Shown here piece after piece: positions 3,162-51,900 of a stretch of DNA of 64,000 nucleotides. The stretch spans positions 25,067 through 89,066 of the forward strand of contig CABMCD010000027.1 in NCBI GenBank assembly GCA_902384555.1, read 5' to 3'. The position numbers and the translations under genes are program-made. The notes below the pieces were generated by a model. That model searched no databases, was not told where the DNA came from, and saw only the letters and a program-made list of their open reading frames with translations. Source of the stretch: an uncultured archaeon (lineage in GTDB: Archaea; Micrarchaeota; Micrarchaeia; Anstonellales; Anstonellaceae). Position 1 is the first letter of the stretch. Each line of letters opens with the position of its first letter.

Positions 3162-3246
3162 GGCCCGCGGACTGGGCGTGTCTTGAGTTTCACATTGAAC
3201 CGAGGGATTTTTTAAGGGCACGCTCGTGCGCTTATGCGGTGCAGAC

Positions 3247-3717: not shown

Positions 3718-3762
3718 GGAAAGGCCAGAACGGCCCCGGACGGCCCGGACCCGATTGCTCTT

Positions 3763-5466: not shown

Positions 5467-5602
5467 GATAGGGTCGCCGGATGGGAAAACGCGGGCTTGG
5501 AATTTAAAGCGCGCAGGCGCGGGCATCGGAAGGAGCTGAATCCTGCTTCGGGTGTGTGGTTGCATCTTTTTGTTCATTTTGGTATAGATGCATACAAATA
5601 AG

Positions 5603-5620
5603 CACGAATATTTAAATAGG
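5603..5620 (+). promoter_or_regulatory. archaeal BRE/TATA-like element upstream of trpE
   Basis: cgaatatttaaatagg, an AT island in a GC-rich genome, ~45 nt upstream of the trpE ATG at 5663. Confidence 0.45.
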
Positions 5621-5662
5621 TCCGACGGGGAGTTGAATCATCCAAACATTAGGTGCATTACC

Positions 5663-7027: not shown

Positions 7028-7031
7028 GCCC

Positions 7032-7622: not shown

Positions 7623-7626
7623 GCGC

Positions 7627-8628: not shown

Positions 8629-8635
8629 GAAGGTT

Positions 8636-10612: not shown

Positions 10613-10621
10613 TTCGAGGCG

Positions 10622-11410: not shown

Positions 11411-11413
11411 AGG

Positions 11414-12244: not shown

Positions 12245-13272
12245 AGGAAATGACGCTCCGAGCGCAAAGCGGGACCACCCGCATACTACTGGATGCGAAG
12301 CTGGAGGACTTGTCCAAGCACGTGCCCCCCAAAACACAGGCCGTGATGGTGGTGGATGCCGAAGTGCTTAGGCTTCACGGCCCGCGCCTGCCCAAACTGC
12401 CAGTCATTTCCATCGAGGCCACGGAGGACAACAAGAGCCTCGACACCATCTGCAAAATCTACGAATTCTTCATGCAGCAGGAGCTGGACCGCACGGGATT
12501 TGTAATCGGCATTGGCGGCGGCATCGTGTGCGACATGGCCGGCTTCGCGGCTTCCACCTACATGCGCGGCGTGCCGTTTGCCTACGCGCCCACCACGCTT
12601 CTGGCGCAGGCCGATGCGTCACTGGGCGGCAAGACCGGCGTCAATTTGCAGGGCTACAAAAATCAGGTCGGGACATTCTGCCAGCCAAGCTTTGTGCTCA
12701 TGGACCTCTCCGTTCTCAAGACCCTGCCCGGGCCGCAAGTGCGGGACGGATTTGCGGAAATCATCAAGCACGCCGCCATTGCGGATGCGCAACTGTTCGA
12801 AATGCTGGAGAAGAACGCAAAAGATGCGCTTGTGCTGGATGAGAAGGCGCTGCGCGCCATTCTGCTCCGCTCGCTGGCCGTCAAGATTTCCGTTGTGGAA
12901 AAAGACGAGAAAGAGGCCGGCGTGCGCCGGCTGCTCAACTTCGGGCATACGCTGGGCCATGCGATTGAGAAAACGCAGCAAAAAAGCCATGGGCAGGCCG
13001 TGGCGATTGGGATGGTGCTGGCGGCCAAGATGTCGGTGGAAAGAAAGATGATGAAAGAAGGCGAGTGCAAACGGCTGATTTCGCTTTTGCGCGCGTATGG
13101 CCTTCCGACCGAATTGGATGGACGGCCGGATGCCCTGCTGCAAGCCGTAACGCACGACAAGAAAAGGGCGGGCGCAAGCCTCCATATGGTGCTGCTGGAA
13201 AAAATCGGGCAAGCTAAAGTGGTGGCAGTGCAAATGGACAAACTAGCGGGAGATTTGCATGATTTGCGTTAG
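12241..13272 (+). CDS. aroB: 3-dehydroquinate synthase
   Basis: [20 protein letters not shown]...[12 protein letters not shown], the DHQS metal/NAD-binding motifs. Confidence 0.85.
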
Positions 13273-15271: not shown

Positions 15272-16499
15272 AATAGACGGCCAAGTGCCGGCCCCCCCGT
15301 CCAAAAGCCAGATGCAGCGCGCGGTGGCCATCGGCAGCCTAAGCGAGGCGCCCCTCACCATCACCAATCCCGATTTCAGCGACGACTCGCAGTCGGCCAT
15401 GAGCGTGGTGGAAGGGCTGGGAGCCAAAGTCGAGCGCCAATTTGGCGGGCCGGAAGCAAACGTCAGGATTACCCCCGGTGCGGGCCTGGCGCAGCACACC
15501 CTCAACTGCGGCCAGTCGGGCCTGTGCATGCGCCTGTTTCCCTCCATTGCGGCCCTGCAGGACAAGCCCTTTACATTTACGGCAACCGGCGGGCTGAACA
15601 CCCGCCCAGTGGGCATGCTCTCCGACGCGCTCAGCCAGCTGGGAGCCGAGAGCCACTGCAAAAATGGACTTCCGCCCCTGAGCGTGCAGGGCCCGCTGCG
15701 CGGCGGGAATGCGGTGATGGATGCCTCGGTCTCGTCCCAGCCCCTGAGCGGGCTGCTGCTGGCACTGCCGAAAGCGCAGGCCGATTCGCATGTGGAGGCG
15801 CGGGGCCTGGAGAGCAAGCCCTATGTGCGCATGACCATGCAGCTGGCCGCCAAATTCGGAGTGGAAATCGGGCATTCGGAGAATTTGGATGCGTTCGACA
15901 TTCCGGCCCGGCAGCAGTACCGGGGCGGAAGCTATGAGGTGGAGGGCGACTGGTCGGGCGCCTCGTTCCTGCTGGTGGCCGGAGCGGTCGCGGGCCGGAT
16001 GGCGGTGGAGGGGCTGGATGCCGATTCGCTGCAGGCCGACCGGGCCATTCTCGATGCGCTGCGCCTTGCGGGCGCAAACGTGAAGGATGGCCCGAATTCG
16101 ACCCGAGTGGAGCGTGGCGAGCTCCAGGCGTTTGAATTCGACCTCACCCAATGCCCGGACTTGGCGCCCCCGCTGGTGGTGCTGGCCGCCTACTGTCCGG
16201 GCACCAGCATTTTGCGCGGCACCCGCCGCCTGCGCTTCAAGGAGAGCGACCGGGCGGCCGTGCTCAAGGAGGAGTTCGCCCATTTGGGCGTGCGGGTGGA
16301 GACGGAGGAGAATGAGATGAGAATATTCGGAGGCGCGGTGCGCGGCGGAGAGGTGGATTCCAACGGGGACCACCGCATCGCCATGAGCGCGGCCGTGGCC
16401 GCGCTGGGCTCGCAGGAGGGCGTGAGGATAAAGAACGCGGCCTGCGTCTCGAAATCATTCCCGTCATTTTTCGAGCGTTTGGAGGAAGCGAGGGCGTGA
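15243..16499 (+). CDS. aroA: 3-phosphoshikimate 1-carboxyvinyltransferase (EPSP synthase)
   Basis: PPSKSQMQRA...LGAKV motifs and full-length EPSPS. Confidence 0.9.
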   Translation: MLMKLVLPTEIDGQVPAPPSKSQMQRAVAIGSLSEAPLTITNPDFSDDSQSAMSVVEGLGAKVERQFGGPEANVRITPGAGLAQHTLNCGQSGLCMRLFPSIAALQDKPFTFTATGGLNTRPVGMLSDALSQLGAESHCKNGLPPLSVQGPLRGGNAVMDASVSSQPLSGLLLALPKAQADSHVEARGLESKPYVRMTMQLAAKFGVEIGHSENLDAFDIPARQQYRGGSYEVEGDWSGASFLLVAGAVAGRMAVEGLDADSLQADRAILDALRLAGANVKDGPNSTRVERGELQAFEFDLTQCPDLAPPLVVLAAYCPGTSILRGTRRLRFKESDRAAVLKEEFAHLGVRVETEENEMRIFGGAVRGGEVDSNGDHRIAMSAAVAALGSQEGVRIKNAACVSKSFPSFFERLEEARA

Positions 16500-16535
16500 A
16501 GGAAGAAGCCGGCGCAGGCCGGCGAACGGGAGGTT

Positions 16536-17588
16536 ATGGGCATGAACACGTTTGGAAGTTTGTTCCGCGTATCGGTTTTCGGCGAATCCCACGGCCCGGC
16601 AGTGGGCGTGCTGCTGGACGGCGTGCCGGCGGGCGTGAGCTTGAGCGAGGCGGACTTTTCCGCTGATATCGGGCGGCGCAGGCCCGGGGCGAGGGGCACC
16701 ACACCGCGCGTGGAGGCGGACGAGCCCGAGCTGATGAGCGGCGTGTTTAATGGCAAGACCACCGGCGCGCCCCTGCTGATTATGTTCCACAACGGCAACG
16801 TGGACTCCAAGCCTTACGAGAAATTGAAAAACACGCCCCGGCCCGGACATGCGGACCTGACAGCCAGCCAGAAATTCGGCGGGTTCAATGATTACCGCGG
16901 AAGCGGGCATTTTTCCGGCCGGCTGACGCTGTGCCTGGTGGCGGCCGGCGTGGTGGCCAAGAAAATGATGGCTGGAGCGGGGGCGGAAGAGGCCGGACGG
17001 CGCGGGGCCGGAGCCGGAGAGGGCATCCGGATTGAGGCCCGCCTCGTTTCGGCCGGCGGCTCGGCCGACGTCCAGTCTGCGGTCGAATCCGCCATGAAAG
17101 ACGGCGACTCGGTAGGGGGCGTGGTGGAATGCAAAGTGTCCGGCCTGCCAACCGGGCTGGGCGAGCCCTTCTTTGACTCGGCCGAGTCGCTCATCAGCCA
17201 CATCGCGTTCGCCATTCCGGCCGTGAAAGGGGTGGAATTCGGCACGGGGTTCGCGGCCGCAAAAATGAAGGGAAGCGAAATGAACGACAGCCTCGCGGAT
17301 GCCTCGGGCCGCACGCGCACCAATAATTCGGGCGGCATCAACGGCGGCATCACCAACGGAAACGAGCTGGTGGTGCGCATCGCCGTCAAGCCCACCTCCA
17401 GCATTGCCCGGGAGCAGGAGCTGCTGGACGTCAAGAGCGGCGAGAAAAAGAAGGCCAGTATAGCGGGCCGGCATGACGCCTGCATCGCCTTGCGCGTGCC
17501 GGTGGTGCTGGAGGCGGCCGTGGCGATTGCGCTGGCCGACCTGATGGCGCGCGAGCAGAAAGTGAAGCGCGTGCAGGCCCGGGCGTGA
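16536..17588 (+). CDS. aroC: chorismate synthase
   Basis: FGESHGPAVG...RPGHAD...GRHDACIALRVPVVLEAA, the conserved chorismate synthase signatures. Confidence 0.9.
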   Translation: MGMNTFGSLFRVSVFGESHGPAVGVLLDGVPAGVSLSEADFSADIGRRRPGARGTTPRVEADEPELMSGVFNGKTTGAPLLIMFHNGNVDSKPYEKLKNTPRPGHADLTASQKFGGFNDYRGSGHFSGRLTLCLVAAGVVAKKMMAGAGAEEAGRRGAGAGEGIRIEARLVSAGGSADVQSAVESAMKDGDSVGGVVECKVSGLPTGLGEPFFDSAESLISHIAFAIPAVKGVEFGTGFAAAKMKGSEMNDSLADASGRTRTNNSGGINGGITNGNELVVRIAVKPTSSIAREQELLDVKSGEKKKASIAGRHDACIALRVPVVLEAAVAIALADLMAREQKVKRVQARA

Positions 17589-17630
17589 TGAAGAGAAGAG
17601 ATTAATAATTCCGGGAGGGAAAAGACAGCC

Positions 17631-18821
17631 ATGCAATTCAAGACCGGGCAGACGGCCGCACAGGAGGGCTTTTTGGAAAAGCCGCTTCTGGTGGAAAACG
17701 CCCCCATGCGGCAGGGCGGCGAGCTGCTGGAGAGCGTGCGCAGCGGCCAATACCTGCTGCAGCTGCAGACCCGCATCCGCGAATACGCGCCCGGCTATGC
17801 GCAGGACCCCCGCGCGAAGAGGCTGCTGGATTATCTTTCCAAAAATGCGGACGCGCTCTCGCAGGAGTTTGCGGCCCGCTGCACGGACGGCTCCATTAAA
17901 TACGAAATCCGCAGCCCGCAGGATTTGGATTTCGCCTTCGGCGTGTTCGTGGGGGCCAAATTCAGCTATGCGGATTTGGAAAAGAAGGGGCCGCTGCAAT
18001 ACCCGAAAATAACCGAGCTGCCGTCCCAAAGCGACCTGGCAGGGGGGCCGGCCGGAAGCTATGACCCGAAGAAAGGGCCTCAAGCGCGCAACCACTACAA
18101 CCCCGAAGCCCACGAAATCGCGATTGAGCGCTATGACTGGGGCGCGGAGCGCGACTGGAAAATCGCGCCGCTTGTTTTCGGCATCGGACTGGGGGCGCAC
18201 GAGCATGCCCACGCCCGCCCGAAGATGACCGGCGCGGCGGGCCGCATGGTGGGCGAATACGGCGCCTATGTGGCGCAAAGCGGATTCGCGCCGCCGCTGC
18301 TCAAGGAGGACGCGGCCGCGATTGAAAAGCGGTTCGACTCCCCGGCCGGCATCCGCGACCTCGCCAAATACGGCGGAAAATTCGCCGGGCTGGACGAGGA
18401 GACGCTCAAGGGCCTGCGGGGCGAATACCTCGCGTTCGCCCTCGGCCCGTTTCTGAAAAAATCCGGCCTTGACGCGTCCGCCCTGAAAGTCGACTCCTAT
18501 TCCGAAGTGACCATCGGCGGAATCTACGACATGCTCACGAAATACAGAAGCGGCCAGATTGCGGATGTCGAGATGATGAAAATAGAGGCGCTGGTGCGGA
18601 TGGGGCTGGACGTGGACAACGAGCCGGACCGCTTCGAGCAGGCCCGCGCGGTGCTGGACAAGATGGAGACCGCCAAATGGACGACGTTTGGGGAATTTCT
18701 GGACGCGTTCTGGAAAGCGGCCAAGGCCGAGTTCAAAAGCTCGCCGAAATTCGAGAAACTGGGCAAGGATTTCACCCTGCTCGATGCCCGGATTTGCGCC
18801 GCAGACGCTGGAGTGGCGTGA
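17631..18821 (+). CDS. hypothetical protein
   Basis: 396 aa ORF with non-biased composition and a GGGAGGG-like RBS upstream of its ATG. No recognisable motif. Confidence 0.5.
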   Translation: MQFKTGQTAAQEGFLEKPLLVENAPMRQGGELLESVRSGQYLLQLQTRIREYAPGYAQDPRAKRLLDYLSKNADALSQEFAARCTDGSIKYEIRSPQDLDFAFGVFVGAKFSYADLEKKGPLQYPKITELPSQSDLAGGPAGSYDPKKGPQARNHYNPEAHEIAIERYDWGAERDWKIAPLVFGIGLGAHEHAHARPKMTGAAGRMVGEYGAYVAQSGFAPPLLKEDAAAIEKRFDSPAGIRDLAKYGGKFAGLDEETLKGLRGEYLAFALGPFLKKSGLDASALKVDSYSEVTIGGIYDMLTKYRSGQIADVEMMKIEALVRMGLDVDNEPDRFEQARAVLDKMETAKWTTFGEFLDAFWKAAKAEFKSSPKFEKLGKDFTLLDARICAADAGVA

Positions 18822-31700: not shown

Positions 31701-33142
31701 TCAAGGCGCCCGCGACTGGGGCGGAAGGGGAAGTTGGCGGCGGGACGGAAGGGACGGGCGGACCGACGAATGGGATCGGGCCGAAGGCCGCGGGTGGGAC
31801 GGAAGAAGCAGGCACCGGACAACAGACGAGCATTGATGCCGGATACTGGAGGAACGGCCAGCCGCGGATGAACATCGGCGGGCAGGACGGGATTCCGGAC
31901 GGGCAATATGTTCTCTTTGAAAACAAGAGGGGAAAGGGAAAGCGATGGGTACTGGCCAACGAAGACGGCAAAACGGAGGAGCTGCAAGACCCCAAAATTG
32001 GCCAGAAGCTGGACCAGTTGTGGAAAAAGAACAAGCCGGCGCCGGAAACGGAAACAAACGCGACAAAAAGGACCATGGCGGATGACATCTTCTCCGCCCA
32101 AGTGGGGCCGGCTGAAATCGAATTCGCGGGCAAGATAAAGAGCCTGTATGAGAAAGCACTTAACACCAAGACAGATGTGGAACTGCAAGGAATTCTGACA
32201 GAAATGGAAACGCTCGTCTCGTCCGAGCCGCTGACGCCAAGCAGGATGAAAGCGGCGGCAGAGGCGCTCGGCATTGATGCGGGCCGGATGAACGCTCTGG
32301 AGCAGAACTTGGAGGTGCTTTGGCCCATCTGCGACCGCTTCTCGGACGCCATGATGGCGGGCCAGGCCGAAATGGGCGGAAGCGGGACGACCTGCATCTA
32401 CTTGGGCCGGGACGGTTGGGCCATGATGTTTGCCCATGCGCTCAAGACCGGCAACGCGGACGGAAGCATCCGCTCGCTGGTGTTCACGCGCGACATGATG
32501 GAAGTAGGCGAGGGAGAAAGCCATGCCGGGCCTTCCGGTGCGCCGGCCCCGTTCAGCATACAATACCGGACACTGCGCCGCGGGGCTTTCAACTCGAATC
32601 CGGTCGGACAGGCAGATTATGCCCTGAAAACCTCTGAGTTCATGGACAAGTATACGGCTTGGTTCGGCAAACAGTGTGAAAACGAGGGATTCCGCAATGA
32701 AGTCGTGAAGGTGTATGATTACATCAAGGCGAACGGGTCAGTGAAGACCGATGCGCAGGGGCGCATCGTCCCGCAGAACTTTTTGGTCGCCGACATCGGG
32801 TTCATTTCGTTCCCCCCGTTCATCAAGAGCGTCATTGAGTACGGGGCCGTGCATGTGGACGGCCTTCCGGCCGGACAGGTGAAGGGAGGCGTGATGTATT
32901 ACCAGACGGCGGCCGGATTCGAATATCTGCCCAATGTCCGCAAAGCCGACGGCTCGGACGGCTCCGGCTTGGCGAGCGTGAGTAAGGTTGAAAAGAAGAG
33001 GCTGGAACCAGTCAACTTCAGCGAACCGGTGTCCCAAGTGGACGCCCAAGGAAACGCGGTGCTGGACATCGGCCCCCGGCGCGCATCCGATGCGCTGTTC
33101 TTTTATTTGATGATGGGCAAAACCATGCAGGATGCGAAGTGA
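25706..33142 (+). CDS. giant multidomain protein (2478 aa) with predicted TM hairpin, internal repeats, caspase-like His/Cys dyad, coiled coil and GHKL/histidine-kinase-type ATPase domain
   Basis: Uninterrupted 7.4-kb ORF with complex composition. HATPase_c boxes around aa 1885-1985: N-box AVGNLCSNAERYG, G1 VMDDGPGF, G2 QVGLSTVKL. HG...SC dyad at aa 1482 and 1524. Two hydrophobic helices around aa 656-730. Confidence 0.8.
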   Translation: MFVLQMGALKPDASNQPASGGADALFSSSSFAQMLKAALYNMDMIGGGQVRLTPLLPTFGAQEQQEALQKVLDGMGRNDVAVEVRDQGLYLRKLPPKQNEDVVLTHVQPGTTFPFRFPPVDPGMRVEDVLDAVLTQQLGPRMAAMDPAQAEDLKQIYGTLAERYRDDPTHEHRVDVTMGEDGKWKAAEVQAVPVPMGAKEAMEQFRAKPGVESALDAIRAVKTEMDGKKTTGAGQKKYDSSLRQQYLLPILSALTPQERTELVQKIGTDPRFEREEKDYLRQQLAKTSSYVQGKPALLKLGAGLKGLDLPELQERMKRTVDIYLSSPGSNLGTAAAQTFNKLFADALGKCTSVEQYRQVVQYGFSLVSGTYLQKITYDKGEKKGQLVIDIEQMAKQGMGGPNMQGAVRSEQMLAFLTGKYNEMKDELESEARFSYARAMNISSYRLTYQNGKPVLEPNPDIPAGPLSPYAPANLAKNMPKDPAARENYLQTKINEMQALESRSRLQRVMGYEQPLTVTEGGGTRHVPGYMDLVNDPHFLADGGLRMNWNGDARKRADVGFFLLNSAFAAEQTADSYAAAPGSERGVARLRQIAKAYQQLEKDFKAGKLDIVDALDGARDLQKQFDATMQKLPQDLFVAGGHATLFGMEVDSEFFRWTVANKAAIGTVVFTGMSLIPGGQIGSAIGFTYMAANDIYEGIRSGNAEQIIMGSAMLLPFAGTAMMARAGRLAEVGEAAGALRWTRAGTAASRTGEVVLYAGMGKGAWEIYKGINEGYFSYSSDIGSIGSLVLPVGIMHTAKALKTKTVSGKAEVKGETAKVPAEVKEEPGTKTQMPAPNEVETKTASLETGKTGTAVAGLDVDAAKRPLSQLGANKTTDAAANKGAEETTALPTEVEARQWEVFREFCIKAAEDYAQYEREHPDVNETDPLNNTPASVLSKNYDQLVELAKTNELAAMKLQWLTKYSPDFFQSADGGRVRQLVLAGQDNPLLMEVARDLAWRRPQLLDPASLAVVLNESGQATARIMQGGGKFDYPLALHIFSVNPALLAEEAPMQALLKWAHNSRDPAAFRLIDRLVNDPGLPQARESLYKAFDAMTFHELDVRNPAAQKFEGTENLLRRFDRWRDDLGTQPRPVLTAEEQAQWNAVELLLSDVGKFEATYTDPASPLADPINRLPPELFSKNYVRLLELCKESEYGPQILSILIRRTPEIFDDPGHRRMRQLLGAAEDSPRLWDAVAELAGERPDLFNDQSIGQLFSNYPADQAPMWLVSKLAKSQPWLMGGERAMDALLRFNAFDEAGLVLRTLNNSHATNAFCLAAWQELPFLQSLTFRDVHSMFEPLKNYEPFPGNKYPYQEVPELLRSMQSLEARSPGAVADLYNGFGIRRFDRYSAEEMAQQHDNQQYAQQSGQAPQTDKPVLLWITAVNDHNGVFATHSGKIQNLKNDFNVIYVEAGNKLELASRFGRTLRAYNPDNQPVTVAVNMHGSGFSGELGSGRHGDLNTGDVILNRNYDPYLPAGSAVLWISCKLGQEGGLAHKFMQKYDKYFVTGFDGSTGFDNINYMGKSKGYFEFDITPNRSDVRVISSEPPTPEVKTGKAAATGNAYEPAAQITPEQTNPVAAEKTAAGVAAEGEAPKLSEKQMEEQAILHDAKNAVVACDTPTKALQMYLDAFAESPERTALEGNLSALEADISIINQGFDKLSNLSDPAYRAKLEKQKADISGQLGEIGPDYREEAQKKLDQINRDLADLDDPDYRERLTADLRVRSRQVEAKMKEVNLEVDRLMNANSLSEADAADIGMFNNGLRNNGADLHGALGELRALDETGVHQPEVGEYNIVAAVRNYFKSASKSGSKFGANVSVLEVGPDGTRREAGDHFTALYDPTLLRRAVGNLCSNAERYGNSKAWMEVEITPTEVRIRVMDDGPGFRPQDVGRAFDFKSGIENYGNKKSSQVGLSTVKLDVEKMGGTVAITDGPQLGGGPTTVEIRLPRGKGVEGETGAEIKAPATGAEGEVGGGTEGTGGPTNGIGPKAAGGTEEAGTGQQTSIDAGYWRNGQPRMNIGGQDGIPDGQYVLFENKRGKGKRWVLANEDGKTEELQDPKIGQKLDQLWKKNKPAPETETNATKRTMADDIFSAQVGPAEIEFAGKIKSLYEKALNTKTDVELQGILTEMETLVSSEPLTPSRMKAAAEALGIDAGRMNALEQNLEVLWPICDRFSDAMMAGQAEMGGSGTTCIYLGRDGWAMMFAHALKTGNADGSIRSLVFTRDMMEVGEGESHAGPSGAPAPFSIQYRTLRRGAFNSNPVGQADYALKTSEFMDKYTAWFGKQCENEGFRNEVVKVYDYIKANGSVKTDAQGRIVPQNFLVADIGFISFPPFIKSVIEYGAVHVDGLPAGQVKGGVMYYQTAAGFEYLPNVRKADGSDGSGLASVSKVEKKRLEPVNFSEPVSQVDAQGNAVLDIGPRRASDALFFYLMMGKTMQDAK

Positions 33143-34802: not shown

Positions 34803-35780
34803 ATGGCGGATTCTCCCATCTATGACGTGCTCGTGATTGGCGCCGGCTGCGGCGGCTGCTCGGCGGCCATGTACGCGGCGCGCTTTGGAATGAAGGTGCT
34901 GATGCTCGGCGAGCTGCCGGGCGGCACCATCACCCAGACGCACGTGGTGGAAAACTACCCCGGATTCGAGACCATCACCGGCCTTGAATTGGGCGAGCGG
35001 CTGCTCAAGCACGCGCAGGCCTATGGCGCGGAACTGAAGATGGAGAAGGCGCTCAAGGTGGAGAAAAAAGCGGACGGAACGTTCGCCACGACTACCGATG
35101 CCGAGGCCACCTACCTCTCGCGCACCCTCATCGCCGCCACCGGAGCGGAGTGGAAGAAGCTGGGCGCGCCGGGCGAAAAAGAGTACGCCAACAAGGGCGT
35201 GCACTACTGCGCGCTCTGCGACGGCTCGTTCTACAAGGGCAAAACGATTGCCGTGGTGGGCTCGGGCGATTCGGCCGCGAAAGAGTCGCAGCTGCTGGCC
35301 GAATACGGCGCGCATGTCTATGTCTTTGTGCGCGGCCATGAGCTGCACGGCGAGCCCATCAACAACAAGCGCGTGGCCGCCAACCCCAAAATCACCGTCT
35401 TTACGGACGTGCAAATCCGGGAGATTGCCGGCCAGCCGAAAGGCAAGATGACGCACCTGAAACTGACCAAGCCCTGCGCGCCGATGGTGAAGCAGGCGGA
35501 CGGCTCGCTCAAGCCGGGCCAGCCGACCGATTCCTTCCCGGCCGACGCGCTCTTCGTGCTCATCGGCCACTCGCCGCTCTCCATCCTGCTCAAAGAAATG
35601 GGCGTCGAGCTCAACGCGCGGGCGGAAGTGAAGGTGGACCGGCTGATGCGCACCAACATCGAAGGAGTGTATGCGGCCGGCGACGTGAACGATTCGGAGT
35701 TCAAGCAGGCGATTGTGAGCGCATCGGACGGCGTGGTGGCCGCCTACTCGGCGCATCAGCTGCTGGAAAAAAAGAAATAA
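34803..35780 (+). CDS. trxB: thioredoxin-disulfide reductase
   Basis: VIGAGCGGCSAA FAD motif, CALCDG redox-active disulfide and GSGDSA NADPH motif. Start at MADSPIYDV. Confidence 0.85.
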   Translation: MADSPIYDVLVIGAGCGGCSAAMYAARFGMKVLMLGELPGGTITQTHVVENYPGFETITGLELGERLLKHAQAYGAELKMEKALKVEKKADGTFATTTDAEATYLSRTLIAATGAEWKKLGAPGEKEYANKGVHYCALCDGSFYKGKTIAVVGSGDSAAKESQLLAEYGAHVYVFVRGHELHGEPINNKRVAANPKITVFTDVQIREIAGQPKGKMTHLKLTKPCAPMVKQADGSLKPGQPTDSFPADALFVLIGHSPLSILLKEMGVELNARAEVKVDRLMRTNIEGVYAAGDVNDSEFKQAIVSASDGVVAAYSAHQLLEKKK

Positions 35781-35814: not shown

Positions 35815-36504
35815 ATGCGCGCGCAAACCTCGGCCGAATGGGCCTTCATTCTGGGCGTGGTGCTCACGGCCGCCCTGCTGGTGCTGGCCACCTCCAGCCT
35901 GCTGCCCGCCGGCGTGGGCGGGCGGGTTCAGGTTCAGGACTCGGTTGCGTATTGGGGCTCGCAGGCGCGGCCGCTGGAAGTGGCCGGCTGGCAGATGGAG
36001 GCCACCGGAGCCAACCTCACCGGCGCCAACCTTACCCTGGTGTTCGCCAATGCCGGCACCGAACAGGTGCGCATCCGCAAAATCATGCTCGCGCCCGGCT
36101 CGTTCACCCAAGTCTACAACGCCTCCGGCACAAGCCTGGGAACGGCCGACGCGCTGGACATCCTGCTGCTGCCCTCCGACCGGCTGACGCTGGTGCTGAG
36201 GCAGCAAGCCGGGGCCGCAGGCGCCTACGCCGTCCCGCCGCTCTACACCCTCAACCTCACCATCACCTATGACGGGACGTTCCCCTCCATGGTGGAGAGC
36301 GGGCGCGTGCCGCTGGCGGGCGAGGCCAAGGTCATCGACCAGGCCGAGGGCATCCCCTGCCGCACCAACGGCGACTGCGCGTCCGGCTACTGCCACGACA
36401 CGGGAGGTGGCAAGATTTGCGTGGAATGTATCGCCAACGGCCAGTGCTCGTGCCCGCCCCCCAAGAACGCGACCTGCGTCAGTTACGCCTGCCAGTGCAC
36501 TTAG
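35815..36504 (+). CDS. pilin-like surface protein with class III (archaeal prepilin-type) signal peptide and Cys-rich C-terminus
   Basis: MRA|QTSAEWAFILGVVL with Gln+1 and Glu+5 then a hydrophobic helix. NLTGANLT, NAS and NLT sequons. C-terminal CRTNGDCASGYC...CVECIANGQCSC knot-like block. Confidence 0.6.
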   Translation: MRAQTSAEWAFILGVVLTAALLVLATSSLLPAGVGGRVQVQDSVAYWGSQARPLEVAGWQMEATGANLTGANLTLVFANAGTEQVRIRKIMLAPGSFTQVYNASGTSLGTADALDILLLPSDRLTLVLRQQAGAAGAYAVPPLYTLNLTITYDGTFPSMVESGRVPLAGEAKVIDQAEGIPCRTNGDCASGYCHDTGGGKICVECIANGQCSCPPPKNATCVSYACQCT

Positions 36505-36636
36505 GCGGGGCCAAGAAGCGCCGCTTTGGCGGACAAAAGCGGCCGCGTTGCGGGGCTTGAGGGCCCGAATTTATTCTTTTTTGCGACGGAGGGCCGAGGG
36601 CAGGCTTTTAATCCCTTTTGGCGAGTAGGTGGCCGT

Positions 36637-39600
36637 ATGGGAGAAGAAGAGAGAAGGGGCGTGAGCAGCGCCGAATTCCTGGCCCTGGCGGCCATCCTTT
36701 TCGTGGCGGCGCTGGTGCTGTCCCAGCTGCTCGGCATCCTGCCGCTGCAGGGCGTCCTGTTCTCGCAGTCCAGAACCTATTGGAACGCGCAGGCCTATCC
36801 GCTCAAAATCACCGACTGGGCGCTCTTGGTGGCCAACGGGACGGGCGGAGACGGCATCTACCGCACCGAAGCCAATCTCTCCATGGTGCTGCTCAACCCC
36901 ACCACCAGTCCGCTCACCATGCAGGCCATCAGCATCGGGCCGGGCAATTTCAGCCAAGTATATGATTTGGACACCCACCAATGGCTGGGGCCGGCGAACC
37001 AGCTCAACATCCGCATCGAGCCGGGGCAGAAGAAGGGGCTCATCGTCCAGCACTGGCGGCTCGGCCCGCCATCCAGCGCGCCGCTGGCCGAGCGCTTCGA
37101 GGCGGACCAGGAATACCAGTTTGACGTGCAGTTCACCTATGCCGGGCGGCTCGAATCCGATTCCGCGCAGACGGCCGCCGGACAGGGCGGCATCCTTACC
37201 CTGCAGCACGGCAGCCTGCCGCTGGTGGGCCAGACGCGCTATGCCGGCATCCCCAGCGGCGTGTGTCCGAGCGGCACGAGCTATTGCGCGGACGGGAGCT
37301 GCTGCGGGGCCGGACAGTGCTGCGGCGGGACGTGCAAGCTGCCCTCCCAATACACCTGCGACGCCTCGTGCACCTGCTGCCCCCTGAGCCAGACGCCGTG
37401 CAACGGCGTGTGCTGCCCCTCCAGCCAGATTTGCGTGAACGGCGCCTGTCAGGCCCCGAACTGCACGTCTCCCTCGTTTGCCTGCGGCCGCTTCTGCTGC
37501 CCCGACAACTACTATTGCGCCAATGACAGCACGACCGATTACGGACAGGCCTGCGTGCGGATATGCAAGAGCCCCACCAACGGCACGTGCGGGCAGTGGT
37601 GCTGCCCCGACGACCAGACCTGCAACTTCGCAGGCGCCCCCTCCATCGACACCGCCTGCGCGCCCACCTGCGCCCCGCAGGTGCAAACCAGCTGCCTGGG
37701 CCCCAACTGGACGGCGAACTGCTGCGAGAACGTCAGCAGCGTCGTCTGCGCCAACGCGTCGGGCACCTGCTGCGACCTCAACGTGGGCATGGCCTGCAAT
37801 TTCCTCAACTCCAGCGGCAACTTCACCGCCTGCTGCAACAAGACCAACCAGCAGTGCACCACCGGCGGCTGCTGCTCCAATCCGGGCGGGGCCTGCACCA
37901 CCAACGCGGACTGCTGCGACGGCTGGGGCTGCAGCAACGGCGTGTGTTCCAGCTGTCCCGCCGGCTGGAGCGCCTGCTGCGCCCAGCCCACGCTGCTGTG
38001 CAACTTCAACCTCTCCAACCCCGACCCGATTTCCTCGCGCAACTGGAACCCGGGGCTCTATCAGGACTGCTGCCAGCACAACCTCGACAATAACGGCAAC
38101 TACATCAACGAGAGCTGCCAGGGCAACTGGTTCGACGGCACCCGCTTCTGGTACGGCTGCCCCCCGGACAACATGCTGACCTCCACCTGCCTCAACGACA
38201 CGGCTTGTGCAAGGGGACCCTACTGGTACAACTACACCAATTACTCCACCGACGGCGTGATATACCGCCCGTGGCCGGCCGGATGCCCCTCCTTGAGCAG
38301 CGGCGGCTACCCCAACAACAGCGGCTGCTGCATCAACAACACCTGGGACTACTGCAACCCGGCAGAGGGCGTGTACTGCTGCCCCGGAACCTACTGCGGC
38401 CCGGACAACAAGTGCACCTATCCCTTCACCTGCCCCTCCAACACCGTCTACATCGACAACGGAGACCATGTGGACAACTACTGGGACTGCTGCCCCAGCG
38501 GCAACGTGAGCTGGCAGAACGCCACCACGGCCGTGTGCTGCCCCAACCCCAGCCTCATGAAAAGTTTCTACGACCCCAACACCGGAGCGCTCTACAGCCG
38601 CTGCTGCAACTCGGCCAACGACACGCTGTGCGGCGCGAATGGCGTGTGCTGCCCCGCCGGCCTGTGCGACGAGGTGAGCGGAACCTGCTGCGGGACCGGC
38701 ATGACGGTGTGCCAGACCGGCTACAATGCCAACATCTGCTGCAACAGCACCACCAGCAACTGCGTGCCCAACAACGGCCCGCGCAGCTATGGCGCGTATT
38801 CCGCCTGCTGCCCCAAGGGCGCGAACGGCAACCAGACCACCTGCGCCAACGGGGCCTGCTGCGACACCACCACCAGCGGCATGGTGTGCACCGGCGACGG
38901 CTGCTGCAACACCACCAGCGGCTCGGGCTATGAGATTTGCAGCGACCAGAACGACACCTGCTGCGGCCCCAGTCCGACCCGCGAGTGCAAGAACGAGCTC
39001 AGCTATACGGGAGGCTACCCGGTGGCGCTGATGGGCAGCGTCTGCTGCGCGGGCGACCAGGTGGCCTGCCAGAAGCAGTGCTGCTCCTCGGAATCCAACT
39101 GCATCCCCGCCAAGTGCCCGAGCATCAACGAGTCGGGCAGCCTCGTCATGCTGGACTGCAGCCCCAAGTGCTGCGAGAACTACAAGGGCACCCCGCCCAA
39201 TCCGCAGCTGTGCGGCAACACCACCTGCTGCTATGGCGCCAGCAGCTGCCTGCAGCCCTCCGACGGCAGCAGCCCGCGCTGCTGCCCCTCGCCCGATTTC
39301 GGCTCCACCCCCGTGCTGTGCGGCGGCACGGGTGAATGCTGCGACGTGGCGGGAGGCTCGGTGTGCTTCGGCACGGTGTGCTGCCCCCCGCCCAACAACA
39401 CGGCCTATTGCGCCGGCAACAACCAGTGCTGCAACCAGAGCTGCTCGCAGCCCGGCAACGTGTGCTGCTCGGGCGGCGGCGGGCCGACGCCGGACTCCTT
39501 GGGCAACTACCACTGCTGCCCGGCGCCCAACAACACCGCCTATTGTCTGGGCAACGGCATGTGCTGCAACGAGAGCTGCAAGGCGGGCGACCTGTGCTGC

Positions 39601-40872
39601 ACCTCGCCCACCAAAGAGTCGGCGCAGGGCCCGCTGGGCGACTACCGCTGCTGCCCCGACGGCAAGACCGAGATTTGCACCGGCGACAACACCTGCTGCG
39701 ACCACTGCACGGCCGGCACCGACGGCAAGACCTACTGCTGCCCGGCGCCCAACAACAAGATATACTGCGCGGGGGCCAATGGGCAGGGAGCCTGCTGCGC
39801 CAGCCCCACTTGCACCCCCGGAACGGACGGCTATAACTACTGCTGCGCGGCGCCCAACAACGTGAGCTACTGCCCCGGCAGCCCGCAATGCTGCTCCCAG
39901 AACTGCATCGACGGGCACTGCTGCCAGGACACCCCGCCGGACGCGGACCCGAACGGCAACATGTACAGCGTCGTCTTCTGCGCGGGCGACAACCAGTGCT
40001 GCGGGCACACCTGCTCGTCCGGGCACTGCTGCCCGTTCGATACGCATGGAAACCTGCAGGACTATGTGAACGGCCAGTGCTGCCCAACGGACCAGAAATA
40101 CTATGACTCGAGCGCCGGAAAATACCTGTGCTGCAGCGGGTCACTGTGCAACGGAGAGTGCTGTCAGGCGAGCGGGAAGGTTTGCACGACATATACAGGT
40201 TTGGACGGTAATCCGCACAGCACCTGTTGCCCGCCCGGCCAAGTGGCGGATGCCAGCGGCGTGTGCTGCGACTCTAAAGACCGAGTGGACATTGGCGGCG
40301 TCCTGACCTGCTGCCCGGCCGCCCAGCAATGCCCGGCCGGTGCTCCGACACAGTGCTGTCCGAGCGGACAGAGTTGTGCAACGTATTCGGATTCGTTTGG
40401 AAACCCACAGACTAAATGCTGTCCCGTCGGCCAGCAGGCCTTGGAGGGAAGCGGCCAATGCTGCGACCCGGCCAGCATCCAAACCGTCAACGGCAACCAG
40501 ATTTGCTGCGACGGCTCCGGCCTCAGCGCCTGCATGGTGAACAATGTCGAGGGCACCCCCAATCCCTTCTGCTGCCCGCTGGATGGAAATGGCCAGTGCA
40601 TCATGTCGGTTTGCGGCGGAGCCTGCTGCGACGAGTCCATCGACCCCATAACCAAGGCGCCGCGCAACGTCTGCCACCGGGAACTGACCCCGCCGCAATG
40701 CCTGCCGGGCCTGACATATGACCCCGGACACACCTGCCCCACCCCGCCCAACCCGCCGGGGTCGGTATATTGCGGCAGCGGCGGCATGACCGGAAGCACC
40801 GGATACTGCTGCCCGCCCGGAACCAACTGCTCAGACCCGAATCTGGACCTGAAGAGCTGTATAGTCCAGTAG
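36637..40872 (+). CDS. giant cysteine-rich (about 16% Cys) pilin-like surface glycoprotein, paralog of the upstream gene in its N-terminal domain
   Basis: Start at MGEEERRG|VSSAEFLALAAILF (class III signal-like). The N-terminal ~230 aa aligns with the upstream gene (YWxxQAxPL, IxPGxFxQVY). The following ~1200 aa is dominated by CC dipeptides and repeated CCPxPNNTxYCxGN modules. Confidence 0.75.
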   Translation: MGEEERRGVSSAEFLALAAILFVAALVLSQLLGILPLQGVLFSQSRTYWNAQAYPLKITDWALLVANGTGGDGIYRTEANLSMVLLNPTTSPLTMQAISIGPGNFSQVYDLDTHQWLGPANQLNIRIEPGQKKGLIVQHWRLGPPSSAPLAERFEADQEYQFDVQFTYAGRLESDSAQTAAGQGGILTLQHGSLPLVGQTRYAGIPSGVCPSGTSYCADGSCCGAGQCCGGTCKLPSQYTCDASCTCCPLSQTPCNGVCCPSSQICVNGACQAPNCTSPSFACGRFCCPDNYYCANDSTTDYGQACVRICKSPTNGTCGQWCCPDDQTCNFAGAPSIDTACAPTCAPQVQTSCLGPNWTANCCENVSSVVCANASGTCCDLNVGMACNFLNSSGNFTACCNKTNQQCTTGGCCSNPGGACTTNADCCDGWGCSNGVCSSCPAGWSACCAQPTLLCNFNLSNPDPISSRNWNPGLYQDCCQHNLDNNGNYINESCQGNWFDGTRFWYGCPPDNMLTSTCLNDTACARGPYWYNYTNYSTDGVIYRPWPAGCPSLSSGGYPNNSGCCINNTWDYCNPAEGVYCCPGTYCGPDNKCTYPFTCPSNTVYIDNGDHVDNYWDCCPSGNVSWQNATTAVCCPNPSLMKSFYDPNTGALYSRCCNSANDTLCGANGVCCPAGLCDEVSGTCCGTGMTVCQTGYNANICCNSTTSNCVPNNGPRSYGAYSACCPKGANGNQTTCANGACCDTTTSGMVCTGDGCCNTTSGSGYEICSDQNDTCCGPSPTRECKNELSYTGGYPVALMGSVCCAGDQVACQKQCCSSESNCIPAKCPSINESGSLVMLDCSPKCCENYKGTPPNPQLCGNTTCCYGASSCLQPSDGSSPRCCPSPDFGSTPVLCGGTGECCDVAGGSVCFGTVCCPPPNNTAYCAGNNQCCNQSCSQPGNVCCSGGGGPTPDSLGNYHCCPAPNNTAYCLGNGMCCNESCKAGDLCCTSPTKESAQGPLGDYRCCPDGKTEICTGDNTCCDHCTAGTDGKTYCCPAPNNKIYCAGANGQGACCASPTCTPGTDGYNYCCAAPNNVSYCPGSPQCCSQNCIDGHCCQDTPPDADPNGNMYSVVFCAGDNQCCGHTCSSGHCCPFDTHGNLQDYVNGQCCPTDQKYYDSSAGKYLCCSGSLCNGECCQASGKVCTTYTGLDGNPHSTCCPPGQVADASGVCCDSKDRVDIGGVLTCCPAAQQCPAGAPTQCCPSGQSCATYSDSFGNPQTKCCPVGQQALEGSGQCCDPASIQTVNGNQICCDGSGLSACMVNNVEGTPNPFCCPLDGNGQCIMSVCGGACCDESIDPITKAPRNVCHRELTPPQCLPGLTYDPGHTCPTPPNPPGSVYCGSGGMTGSTGYCCPPGTNCSDPNLDLKSCIVQ
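39360..39910 (+). repeat. tandem coding repeat modules (CCPxPNN[TKV]xYCxGxxxCCxxxC) within the Cys-rich gene
   Basis: At least four copies visible at about 39375, 39511, 39733 and 39838. The tgctgc hexamer is highly recurrent. Confidence 0.6.
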
Positions 40873-40969
40873 AGGCGTTGGAAGCGGGGCCTTTTTATAT
40901 GAAAATTTGAGCAATTTTTCCTAGGCGCGAGGGGTAAAGCTTATATAGTTTGCCGGGGCCTATAAAAAC

Positions 40970-42460
40970 ATGAAATCCCCTATTCCGACCACCAAAAACA
41001 ACGTTGTGCGTGAAGCCGGCCTCAAGGTCGGCGAACTTGGAAAAGACGTCTTGAATTTCGCCACGGCGAATCCGGGCAAGACGGCGGCAGGCGTGGCCTT
41101 TGTGGCCAAGCTCCTGACGCCGGACGTGGCTTCGGCGCAGGACCCCTCGATTGTCAACATCACCCGCGTGGATGGCGCCATCAACAAGGTCATTCCCTTT
41201 GAGGGCGGCACTTACAATATTGTCGGCACGTCCAGCACCGTCACCAAGACCATGTCGCTGGACTCGGTTTACCTGTGCCAGACGGTGGATTTGAATTCCT
41301 CGTCTTCCTTCAAGTTCTTCGGGAACTTGGAAGTGAAGGTGGCCGGCTACGACAACGGCGTGCTGACGCTCAAGCCCGTCAAATCCGCCTATGGAACCAT
41401 CCAAATCCAGAACGGCGACAAGCACGGCGAGTGGACGTTTGAGGTGGCGGAGCAGTCGGCTTCGGTCCTCAAGCTGCGCGCGGTTGCGACCAACCAGACC
41501 GTGAAGCAGGGCGACACCCTGCGCGGCCCGGCGGGCAGCATTGACCTGACCAACGTGCCGTCCCCGGCCTATACGCAGGCGATTATCCGCTCCATCTCGA
41601 ACACGACCATTCCGACTGACCAGGGAGACGTGACGATTGCGAACGGCTTCAAGATTCAGATTGTCCGCGACAGTTTGGCGAAGAACCCGGTGAAGAATGA
41701 CTTCTATGTTTTGAATGGGTCTGGAACCACTGTTATCGGCGAGTTTGTAGTGGACCCCGGCACCAAGAAGGGCTACTACAAGGACACCACGGGCACGACG
41801 GAGTTCAAGAAAAACAGTACTCCGGCAGTCAGTATTAGCGCAACCAATGCCATTAATGCGGCTGGAAAGAGTGCGGATAGTAAACCTATTGTTCAACACT
41901 CGATAAAATTCGATAACACCAGTTCAGACCGCTTGATGTTTGCTATCCAAAATGGCGAGATAGTTAGCCAAACATTCGATTTGGTTCACTCGACAATCAA
42001 GGGTACTACCGTGATTGACTCCCTTATGCAGTCCGGCCTGCTCTCCTACCTCGACCCCGTCTCCAACTTCAAGGACACCGTCGTCACGGGCCAGAACGGC
42101 AAGCTGGAAGTCGTCATCGCCTACAACGGCAACGACCCGCGCAACAACGTCCAGCTCGTGCTGGGCAAGCCGGACTCCAGCGTCACGGACGTGCGGGAGG
42201 GCCCGGCGGGCGCCATCCACGCCGACATCCGCGTCTACCCCAACCCGATTGCGGACCGCGTGATGAACGTCGAGCTGCCTCAGGCCGTTGAGAAGGACCG
42301 CAAGTTCTACATCTACACCCAGCTCGGCCAGCAGGTGGGCGAATTCACCATCCCGGCGGGCGAGCAGGTCGGCCATGTCTTCCTCAAGGACCTGTCCACG
42401 GGCACCTACTTCGTGACCGACGGCAAGCGCGGCCTGCCGATTGTGGTGTTCGACAACTGA
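40970..42460 (+). CDS. secreted/surface protein with N-terminal anchor helix and T9SS-like (Por_Secre_tail-type) C-terminal beta-sandwich domain
   Basis: C-terminal RVYPNPIADRVMNV...FYIYTQLGQQV...GTYFV...KRGLPIVVFDN matches the Bacteroidota C-terminal sorting-domain pattern. Many NxS/T sequons and an N-terminal hydrophobic helix. Confidence 0.6.
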   Translation: MKSPIPTTKNNVVREAGLKVGELGKDVLNFATANPGKTAAGVAFVAKLLTPDVASAQDPSIVNITRVDGAINKVIPFEGGTYNIVGTSSTVTKTMSLDSVYLCQTVDLNSSSSFKFFGNLEVKVAGYDNGVLTLKPVKSAYGTIQIQNGDKHGEWTFEVAEQSASVLKLRAVATNQTVKQGDTLRGPAGSIDLTNVPSPAYTQAIIRSISNTTIPTDQGDVTIANGFKIQIVRDSLAKNPVKNDFYVLNGSGTTVIGEFVVDPGTKKGYYKDTTGTTEFKKNSTPAVSISATNAINAAGKSADSKPIVQHSIKFDNTSSDRLMFAIQNGEIVSQTFDLVHSTIKGTTVIDSLMQSGLLSYLDPVSNFKDTVVTGQNGKLEVVIAYNGNDPRNNVQLVLGKPDSSVTDVREGPAGAIHADIRVYPNPIADRVMNVELPQAVEKDRKFYIYTQLGQQVGEFTIPAGEQVGHVFLKDLSTGTYFVTDGKRGLPIVVFDN

Positions 42461-42530
42461 GCTTCTTTTCTTTTTCAAATTGGCCGCCCGCAAAAACGGC
42501 CTTTTTCTGATTTTTTTCTTTTTCAAAAAA
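42461..42530 (+). terminator. hairpin plus T-tract terminator region
   Basis: ggccgcccgcaaaaacggcc hairpin followed by ttttt and further T-runs between two plus-strand genes. Confidence 0.45.
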
Positions 42531-42546
42531 AACCGAGGCCGAGGAT

Positions 42547-43923
42547 ATGACGTTCAAGGCACCCATCCGCGCATACGTCATGGCCCTCAGCTTTTTGGCC
42601 CTCACCACCGCCTGCGGCATCCTGCCCAAATACGACGTCACGCCCGTGAACCGGCCCAAGGTGACGGACAGCCGCTCCAAATGGATTGGCGAGCGCATGG
42701 ACAGCATCTTGGCCGGCAAAGCCACCCTGAATGACATCACCCGCACGCTGGGAATCGGGACCAACGGCATGCGCGAGGTGAACGGCGGCGTGACCGACCA
42801 GTGGGTGGCCGCGCAGGCATGGGCGAACGGGCAGAAATACAAAAAGGAAGTGCTGGAAGCCGCTTGGAAGGATTTTGAGAACTATTGGAACGACAAGCTG
42901 TCGCTGAGGGTGCTGGGCGCCTGGGCGACGCCGCAGGACGTGAGCTTGAAGCAGTTCCTGCGCATGCAGGACAGCCTGTACGCCGGCGGGTTCAGCCGAA
43001 TCAGCGGAAAAGAGATGGGCGCCAAGCTGGACCGGGCCGCTTGGAAGAAGATACAGAATTCGCATCTCAAAGATTACCCGCTGGCCTGCGCATTCTATTT
43101 TGTCGAGGATTATATCGCCTGCAACGGCACGTGCTCAAACGGGCCCAAGCTGGACGCCGCGCTGGCCGCCCACGAGGCCTTCTGCAGCAAGGTGGTGCTG
43201 GACGGCGCAGCCGAAGTGCTGCATTTGAGCAACAACGGCGAGAACATCCTGAGGCGGGAGGCCAAGACCGAGCTGGACAGCATGGTGGCCTACCAGAATT
43301 TCGGCCACCGGGCCCTCTTCTATCCGGCGCACGTGTGGTTTCTGGCGAAAGCGGCTAGGGCCGGATATTACTTGTGGCAGGGCAGCGGGCAGAAGGATGC
43401 GGCCGGGCGGGACAATGACGGGCGGGACGCGTTTTTGGACAGCATCCAAACCAGCCAAAAACCCCTCTTCGTGGCCGTCGACGGCCACGGCCAGCCGGAC
43501 GAAATCAGCGTCTCCACCGACGCAAAATACACGCTGGCCAAGCTGGAGCTTGGGCCGCTCTACCGGGCGTTCAAGGCGAGGGCCCGCTCGGCGCGCGGAC
43601 AGCCGACCACGGCCATGATTTTCTCCTGCTATGACCATGATTTCGTGAGTGCGCTGCTCGGGCAATGGCGGGCGGATGCCGACCTCAAGAACGTCGAGCC
43701 GCCCGATTTCGTGGTGTTCTCCCGTCCAGGGCAGGAAACGCAGGGCCTGCCGACAAGCGTTTTGAGCGCCATGGCCGAGCACGTGCAAGGCCCCATAACC
43801 GGAGGAGACCTGATGCGCTGGCTGCAGGGCTTCAATTTCGCGCAGGATGAGAAGATAAGGCCGGCGTTCTTTTACGCGCCGCAGCAAGCGCCGGTGCAGG
43901 TGAGCGAATACGGCCAGCGCTGA
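42547..43923 (+). CDS. lipoprotein with C-terminal caspase-like (HG...SC) domain
   Basis: Lipobox LALTTAC|G after a signal helix. FVAVDGHGQPDE...AMIFSCYDHDF with ~47 aa spacing resembles the caspase/clostripain catalytic dyad. Confidence 0.55.
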   Translation: MTFKAPIRAYVMALSFLALTTACGILPKYDVTPVNRPKVTDSRSKWIGERMDSILAGKATLNDITRTLGIGTNGMREVNGGVTDQWVAAQAWANGQKYKKEVLEAAWKDFENYWNDKLSLRVLGAWATPQDVSLKQFLRMQDSLYAGGFSRISGKEMGAKLDRAAWKKIQNSHLKDYPLACAFYFVEDYIACNGTCSNGPKLDAALAAHEAFCSKVVLDGAAEVLHLSNNGENILRREAKTELDSMVAYQNFGHRALFYPAHVWFLAKAARAGYYLWQGSGQKDAAGRDNDGRDAFLDSIQTSQKPLFVAVDGHGQPDEISVSTDAKYTLAKLELGPLYRAFKARARSARGQPTTAMIFSCYDHDFVSALLGQWRADADLKNVEPPDFVVFSRPGQETQGLPTSVLSAMAEHVQGPITGGDLMRWLQGFNFAQDEKIRPAFFYAPQQAPVQVSEYGQR

Positions 43924-51777: not shown

Positions 51778-51900
51778 GCCCTGGTAGTCCAACCTGGATA
51801 GGACGCGAGCCTCCGAATGGCAAGTGCTACCTTAAGCACGAGTGCGAGTAGCCTGAATAGGTGAAAGCTCACGATCCGGGTTCAAATCCCGGCTGGGGCG
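51778..51900 (+). tRNA. intron-containing tRNA, probably tRNA-Arg (anticodon CCG)
   Basis: Acceptor GCCCUGG/CUGGGGC, D-arm GUCC-AACCUGGAUA-GGAC, anticodon loop CUCCGAA, T-arm CCGGG-UUCAAAU-CCCGG. ~49-nt insert 3' of the anticodon loop with an internal hairpin. TATA ggatataaag 26 nt upstream and a T7 tract downstream. The anticodon stem has one C-A mismatch as folded. Confidence 0.55.

Follow-up and report, generated by a model that had tools for sequence, protein, structure and literature searches.

A predicted type IX secretion-type C-terminal domain as an apparently exchangeable tail on a Micrarchaeota surface-type protein

Why would an archaeon encode a protein that ends like the cargo of a bacterial outer-membrane secretion system? 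The C-terminal domain (CTD) of type IX secretion systems (T9SS) is treated as a hallmark of outer-membrane secretion in Bacteroidota and the wider Fibrobacterota–Chlorobiota–Bacteroidota (FCB) group. We address this question for one gene in a stretch of 64,000 nt from an uncultured member of the Micrarchaeota (assembly GCA_902384555.1, contig CABMCD010000027.1, positions 25,067 to 89,066 of the forward strand), hereafter the window. The gene (40970..42460, + strand) encodes a 496-aa protein of secreted or surface type, to whose end family models assign a T9SS type-A CTD; the identical protein database record reads “Uncharacterised protein [uncultured archaeon]”. An original prediction, made from the sequence alone, had proposed this domain and had also noted a drop in GC content within the gene. 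We find it somewhat likelier than an even bet (probability roughly 0.55) that the gene encodes an exported Micrarchaeota surface protein with a true T9SS CTD homologue as an exchangeable tail, that a patch of its body was imported, and that the tail has been retained without a T9SS.

The tail is, on the evidence of profile matches to solved CTDs, a predicted fold and conserved residues, a member of the T9SS type-A CTD family, homologous rather than convergent. Residues 422-483 score 29 bits against the Pfam model PF18962 Por_Secre_tail (gathering cut-off 27, E 1.4e-6) and 23.7 bits against the NCBIfam model TIGR04183 for the T9SS type A sorting domain (cut-off 23). Both curated cut-offs are thus passed, narrowly, in agreement with the proposed identity of the last ~80 aa. 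Because these margins are thin, homology was tested independently. A CTD profile, built from the tail and its eight nearest relatives, aligns end to end with the solved structures 8glk_D and 8glj_D (E 7e-7), both substrate CTDs within T9SS translocon complexes. The mirolase CTD (8qb1) and CTD-bearing Bacteroidota enzymes are also among its matches. AlphaFold2 predicts seven strands at about residues 421-495 with a predicted local distance difference test score (pLDDT) of ~90, and Foldseek matches this modelled tail to 8qb1_A (probability 1.00, template modelling (TM) score 0.67) and to the FspA CTD 8glj_D (probability 0.97, TM score 0.65). Foldseek searches with the full-length model were set aside, being dominated by spurious alignments to multiple immunoglobulin (Ig)-like domains. 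In an alignment of 35 CTDs, P424, N425, P426, G453 and G478 are near-invariant.

The tail therefore shares with Bacteroidota type-A CTDs, such as those of FspA (8glj_D), endonuclease I (8glk_D) and mirolase (8qb1_A), a length of ~75 residues at the extreme C-terminus, a predicted seven-strand beta-sandwich, PNP in the first strand, conserved glycines and a GxY motif near the end. That it is instead an Ig-like domain unrelated to T9SS CTDs, similar by convergence, was already disfavoured and strikes us as very improbable. Beta-sandwiches are common, FN3 and Cel9A Ig-like domains likewise surface in the fold search, and the family scores of this particular sequence are marginal. Convergence would nevertheless leave unexplained the end-to-end match of the family profile to solved T9SS CTDs, the common PNP, G and GxY positions, relatives that reach 52 bits, and a full-length homologue (protein P0008) encoded on a bacterial contig together with other CTD proteins.

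The domain occupies residues 422-496 of 496 (42233..42457, +) and is C-terminal in all Micrarchaeota relatives examined. Among the 50 best CTD matches checked, the alignment ends 0-14 residues from the C-terminus of the subject. The tail differs from usual T9SS CTDs in its near-threshold scores and in its last strand, which lacks the Lys/Arg-rich ending; the terminal basic motif is weak (VVFDN). The protein ends in ...TDGKRGLPIVVFDN, which belongs to a beta-strand and has no hydrophobic helix, and NCBIfam returned no match of the protein to archaeosortase-type signals (PGF-CTERM and relatives). Like the signals of the PGF-CTERM/archaeosortase A system, the tail is a C-terminal element common to many surface proteins of one lineage. 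Archaeosortase substrates, however, end in a short motif, a transmembrane helix and a basic tail, whereas the target ends in a predicted folded, soluble beta-sandwich terminating in GLPIVVFDN.

Relatives of the tail are many and relatives of the body few. When 1.84 billion representatives were searched exhaustively with a profile, 236 matches resulted, almost all of which align only to residues ~405-496; about 230 proteins match the tail alone, and only four (P0002, the fragment P0003, P0008 and P0014) are relatives of the body. The best tail matches are Micrarchaeota proteins. A word-indexed protein search found one homologue, and the CTD-only profile recovered from a 5.8-billion database only five short proteins, which carry no taxonomy. 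Outside the tail, no residues of the target match a family in Pfam or NCBIfam. Seven of eight complete Micrarchaeota CTDs, the target included, reach the PF18962 cut-off (27-52 bits); a 585-aa protein from locus L021 falls short at 26.4 bits, as does a more distant protein from locus L008 at 18.

Tail and body relationships disagree. In related Micrarchaeota, the tail is found on at least five unrelated bodies, always at the C-terminus. With the tails of P0005, P0006, P0007, P0012 and P0017, all proteins with bodies unlike that of the target and unrelated to it, the target tail shares 40-50% identity, but with the tail of P0002, its body homologue, only 23%. P0005 and P0006 differ in their bodies and are almost the same in their tails. 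P0002 and P0004, too, have different bodies and share one tail subtype (54% identity); their genes occupy equivalent positions and are each followed by AAA_14. Since the identity patterns of tails and bodies conflict, tails appear to have been exchanged between bodies, and the sequence comparisons mark the tail as a recurring, exchangeable C-terminal module in this clade.

The tail appears to be under purifying selection and does not behave as a decaying relic. By the Nei-Gojobori method, dN/dS is 0.22-0.50 for the CTD and 0.29-0.48 for two body regions, with dS partly saturated. These results bear on the original prediction, which had offered a choice between a vestigial tag and a convergent domain: profiles make the tail homologous, and its recurrence on at least five bodies, its exchange and its dN/dS values are not those of a relic. 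Neither option thus describes it well. Were the tail nonetheless vestigial, the gene would have come from a T9SS-bearing bacterium and carried its CTD along as a neutral, functionless beta-sandwich. We regard this as unlikely but deserving of serious weight. It would fit the lack of any T9SS component among the window proteins scanned, the divergence of the target tail (29 bits, compared with 48-50 bits for P0008 and P0014 against PF18962), the loss of the usual basic residues from its last strand, the absence of a CTD gene at one related locus (L004), and the broken CTD genes or fragments at two others (L001 and L023). It fits poorly with a tail that persists at the extreme C-terminus of unrelated bodies in several genomes, that moves between bodies, that evolves overall no faster in dN/dS than the body regions, and whose codon composition is fully ameliorated.

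The family plausibly reached Archaea as a whole cargo gene. Between P0008 and the family profile, hhalign gives an alignment of 383 columns (residues 69-483; probability 97.3%, E 2.4e-11). Its contig has 34-37% GC and encodes a TonB-dependent receptor and further CTD proteins, which indicates that its host is a diderm, Bacteroidota-like bacterium. P0014, in turn, is encoded on a contig of 33% GC that carries archaeal GatD and GatE. With one relative on a bacterial and the other on an archaeal contig, body and tail would have crossed domains together. Transfer from Bacteria to Archaea is the likely, although not proven, direction, given that the domain is known to be abundant in Bacteroidota. 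The horizontal acquisition suggested in the original prediction is therefore plausible in view of this distant full-length homologue, while its picture of a single retained relic is not borne out.

The body of the protein contains a patch of atypical composition. GC content, measured in 200-nt windows, falls to 0.42 at 41801-42050, the lowest value in the 64 kb (mean 0.617, standard deviation 0.052). The dip that had been placed at ~41800-42010 is thus real and the strongest in the window. It sits at third codon positions, where GC (GC3) is 0.33-0.53 over aa ~286-345 and 0.8-1.0 on either side. Across 39 genes (mean 0.825, standard deviation 0.084), no 60-codon GC3 minimum is lower than the 0.417 found here, and the trough is the only one of its kind inside a gene; the next-lowest values occur at the upstream ends of stop-to-stop frames and likely take in sequence that precedes the real start codons. 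The boundaries are sharp, at ~41808 and ~42025, and enclose 218 nt (aa ~280-352; 41808..42025, +) that coincide with the hypervariable segment of the family. As a sign of mosaic or recent origin, the dip holds for this part of the body only. GC3 in the CTD is 0.85-1.0, which is host-like, so the tail is not compositionally foreign, and neither it nor the gene as a whole is marked as recent.

Comparison with relatives indicates that the patch is most likely a tract imported by recombination, in which it replaced a hypervariable segment of the body. P0002, the only close full-length homologue (40% identity), aligns collinearly across it, which rules out an insertion. The closest known relative of the gene is a 939-nt fragment (L029), with which it shares 76% DNA identity up to gene position 821 (window 41790), where the similarity ends. 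In 20-aa blocks, protein identity is first 65-95%, drops to 35% within the patch and rises again at SYLDP...NF.DTV. This metagenome fragment (positions 1-939) contains a frame shift at about nt 285-297, which reflects either a pseudogene or a sequencing error. The window and the fetched loci contain no second copy of the patch, and the template repeat of a diversity-generating retroelement (DGR) is therefore excluded as its cause. The window proteins scanned include no reverse transcriptase, and neither the window nor the fetched loci were found to contain a silent cassette array, an invertase or a DGR template repeat. A scan of GTDB genomes for a patch donor or more family members yielded no relatives, and a scan of JGI metagenomes for a donor returned only the already known L001 contig. 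Genomic GC is 50-62% in this clade and 33-44% in more distant Micrarchaeota; lower-GC donors thus exist, and replacement by recombination is the simplest reading.

The patch might also stem from a functional constraint that acts locally on the DNA or mRNA. The region could contain a promoter, internal or antisense, or encode a small RNA, or its clustered rare codons could slow translation between domains. AT-ending codons are indeed rare in a genome with a GC3 of ~0.85, the patch lies between a confidently folded N-terminal domain and a conserved SGLLSYL...YNGNDPRNN block, and the scans brought up no donor sequence. We consider this explanation doubtful. The homologues at L001 and L029 have no comparable drop against their own flanks at this position, and at the patch boundaries identity to the closest relative collapses in both nucleotide and protein sequence, a pattern suggestive of replacement. 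The patch has no match in Rfam, and a scan that was not designed for archaea found neither a sigma-70-like promoter nor an intrinsic terminator.

The window is archaeal and belongs to the Micrarchaeota (DPANN). It encodes FttA/aCPSF1, a proteasome subunit, a geranylgeranyl reductase and an intron-containing tRNA, in keeping with the archaeal host named in the original prediction, and its FttA is 88-91% identical to those of Candidatus Micrarchaeota metagenome-assembled genomes (MAGs). The tRNA, detected by Rfam (123 nt, 41.3 bits, 51778-51900, +) and missed by ARAGORN, has a ~52-nt insertion that is the intron. ARAGORN also called a tRNA-Leu at 35476-35552 (+), within a TrxB-like open reading frame (ORF); it has no Rfam support and is probably a false positive. 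A bacterial gene mis-joined to an archaeal contig, through contamination or chimeric assembly, was already disfavoured and is extremely improbable here. The contig does come from a metagenome of an uncultured archaeon, and the patch is compositionally odd. Outside the patch, though, the GC3 of the gene equals that of its neighbors; archaeal-type transcription signals can be read on both sides of it; and independent assemblies from other samples carry CTD genes in the same syntenic position.

No machinery for a T9SS is apparent around the gene. A Pfam scan of ~40 proteins from the 64-kb window revealed no T9SS core component (SprA/Sov, PorV, PorU or PorK/L/M/N). The T9SS is known only from diderm bacteria of the FCB group (PMC5445135), and a cultivated Micrarchaeon is reported to have a surface layer (S-layer) over its cytoplasmic membrane, which revises an earlier proposal of two membranes (10.1101/2021.04.28.441871). 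The target resembles T9SS cargo in that its tail follows a variable passenger and, probably, an N-terminal signal peptide, albeit a weak one. It differs from such cargo in its host, which is archaeal and belongs to a phylum whose cultivated member is bounded by a single membrane, and in the lack of T9SS genes nearby. With no outer membrane expected in such a host, the tail could hardly serve as a translocation signal.

The N-terminus is probably a Sec signal peptide, weak and not a strong anchor. The first 57 aa (40970..41140, +), delimited by alignment, hydropathy and low pLDDT in the AlphaFold model, contain a conserved MKSPIPTTK, a weakly hydrophobic stretch, TAAGVAFVAKLL, and a cleavage-like site, ASA|QD. 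The beginning of the protein, MK(S/T)xIPT, is shared with P0002 in the alignment, relative to which the target has an insertion of ~21 aa. The 13-aa Kyte-Doolittle maximum of the hydrophobic stretch is 1.56, and that of most relatives compared is 1.6-2.0; two relatives score lower, their start codons possibly having been miscalled. The region aligns with the clearer cleavable signal peptides of homologues, and N-terminal signals are clearer than in the target in P0002, P0004, P0008 and a 510-aa protein of L023. The N-terminal anchor helix in the original prediction thus gives way to something closer to a cleavable signal peptide. The many NxS/T sequons claimed there amount to no enrichment: the protein has 7, and shuffled sequences have 5.05 +/- 2.03 (P 0.22). 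Behind the signal region, an all-beta body domain (aa 58-236; 41141..41677, +) is modeled with confidence and has no close structural relative.

The gene lies in a recurring, variable surface-protein locus, bounded by a giant pilin-like gene on one side and by proteasome, FttA and MetRS on the other, which in this clade encodes the various passenger bodies. The order in the window is TrxB-like, small pilin-like, giant Cys-rich pilin-like, CTD gene, a 458-aa orphan, proteasome, FttA and MetRS. The giant gene (36526..40872, +) encodes a Cys-rich, sequon-rich protein recognized by composition and motif, with 194 Cys in 1448 aa (13%), 34 sequons against 16.9 +/- 3.9 expected, and internal repeats of the CCPAPNNTAYC type; the start of the ORF is likely M38. 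It has no Pfam or NCBIfam match. Its N-terminus, RRG|VSSAEF followed by a hydrophobic stretch, resembles class III type IV pilins, with Glu at +5. Homologues with the same N-terminus occur at L003, L004 and L021, and further Cys-rich homologues at L023. Just upstream, a 229-aa paralogue of its N-terminal region (35815..36504, +) has the pilin-like signal MRAQ|TSAEW. A TATA-like box, TTATATA (40943..40949, +), read from the sequence ~27 nt upstream of the ATG of the CTD gene, suggests transcription of this gene from an archaeal promoter of its own, as a leaderless mRNA. The T-rich intergenic tract after its stop codon (42461..42546, +) is a likely archaeal oligo-T terminator. The 458-aa orphan between the CTD and proteasome genes (42547-43923, +) has a lipobox-like LTTAC near its N-terminus, matches no family and has no homologue in any related locus.

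A CTD gene follows the giant Cys-rich gene in three of four related CTD-carrying loci (L003, L021 and L023), as it does in the window; the fourth, L001, is uninformative on this point, as its contig starts too near its CTD gene. At L003, the gene after the giant one encodes a different CTD protein, of 589 aa. L021 (GCA_027348265.1) has CTD proteins of 555 aa and 585 aa between the giant gene and proteasome-FttA-MetRS. L023 (GCA_041643025.1) has two Cys-rich and CTD pairs, one of them broken, plus a third CTD gene. The tandem duplication of this pair spans 2303-10247 and is interrupted by a HepT/nucleotidyltransferase toxin-antitoxin pair; one CTD gene there is split into pieces of 338 aa and 170 aa. 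At L001, P0002 is accompanied by two CTD-only ORF fragments (3084-3353 and 5122-5409) that flank an AAA_14/AbiEii/DUF6577 insertion. At L004, where FttA is 88% identical, the giant pilin-like gene is directly followed by the proteasome gene (4810-9838), and there is no CTD gene, which makes the CTD gene polymorphic for presence or absence at this locus. Neighbors other than the giant gene and housekeeping genes differ between the loci examined.

The sequence of events that we favor starts with entry of the family into Archaea as a whole T9SS cargo gene, after which the tail would have been retained and spread by recombination. The target protein would cross its single membrane by means of the N-terminal Sec-type signal. 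Lacking an outer membrane and a T9SS, its tail would act as a folded C-terminal beta-sandwich, which may keep the protein on the cell surface through docking, whether to the S-layer, to a glycan or to the neighboring giant pilin-like protein. Alternatively, the tail might be a stable stalk that doubles as a conserved 3′ handle for body swapping. The low-GC3 patch would have come from a lower-GC relative by homologous recombination, replacing a probably exposed hypervariable segment.

More specific roles for the tail can be envisaged. It could be a true sorting signal in a CTD pathway independent of the T9SS, read by an archaeal protease, transpeptidase or receptor that would cleave or dock it and so attach the cargo to the S-layer, a glycolipid or the giant pilin-like protein. 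The strictly C-terminal position, the CTD subtypes common to unrelated bodies, the purifying selection on the tail, and the adjacency of CTD genes to the giant gene in the window and three related loci would all accord with such a pathway. We think it quite unlikely, as no candidate partner was identified in the loci examined, the remaining neighbors vary from locus to locus, and the 458-aa neighbor lacks homologues in the related ones. A dedicated archaeal reader is possible but unsupported. On a bolder reading, which we put forward only tentatively as a rather unlikely one, the CTD would have been re-purposed as a working sorting or docking signal without T9SS or outer membrane, perhaps in partnership with the neighboring giant pilin-like protein, rich in Cys, or with the S-layer, and cassette-like swapping of exposed bodies and hypervariable patches between relatives at the locus would change what the surface of the symbiont binds.

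Several points weigh against the reading that we prefer, an exported protein with a retained, exchangeable CTD and an imported patch. The PF18962 and TIGR04183 scores of the tail are marginal, barely over threshold. Export is not certain, given the weak signal peptide and the 21-aa insertion, and retention or docking at the surface by the tail is pure conjecture. The examination for T9SS genes covered 64 kb of the genome. The direction of transfer is indirect, since 80 aa are too few for a robust tree and the hit library is without taxonomy. Some of the pairs used for dN/dS have a dS close to saturation. The GTDB and JGI scans and the fetched loci brought up no donor of the patch, and local functional constraint may be the cause of the patch. 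Finally, the absence of a CTD gene from the L004 locus means that the module is dispensable.

Elsewhere in the window, a 2478-aa protein (25706-33142, +) has HATPase_c as its sole recognizable domain (residues 1879-1987). A cluster for tryptophan and shikimate biosynthesis extends from 5588 to 18278 and includes fused genes, namely IGPS+TrpB (8636-10612) and dehydroquinase + shikimate dehydrogenase + shikimate kinase (13259-15271). Genomes of the DPANN type are usually poor in biosynthesis genes, which makes this cluster notable.

Archaeal T9SS-type tails have been recorded before as annotations. In literature searches that paired T9SS or Por_Secre_tail with DPANN, Micrarchaeota or archaea, we found incidental annotation lines only, and no analysis of the recurrence, locus structure, module exchange or selection of such tails. 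One such line is a Por_Secre_tail annotation on a C25 peptidase in an archaeal MAG of the Thermoprofundales, listed in PMC6461988. Like the target, this peptidase is archaeal, carries the same Pfam/TIGRFAM annotation and is predicted to be extracellular; unlike the present analysis, that source gives the tail as an annotation line only. The locus described here also recalls cassette-type variable surface loci, with conserved flanks and a conserved 3′ module around middles that are unrelated or hypervariable between close relatives, and with tandem duplications, broken copies and a mosaic tract within a gene. It differs from them in the lack of any detected silent array, invertase or template repeat, and the variation seen here is between genomes.

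A T9SS CTD that appears to be kept, shuffled and selected in a single-membrane archaeal lineage apparently without a T9SS suggests that the domain can exist independently of its secretion system. It would also be a tangible example of a cargo gene passed between domains of life. CTD annotations in metagenomes call for caution, as they need not imply a T9SS. For the Micrarchaeota themselves, the neighborhood of the gene may matter as much as its tail. DPANN archaea depend on contact with host cells, and a locus that combines a giant pilin-like protein with variable, CTD-tagged proteins is therefore a candidate for host recognition.

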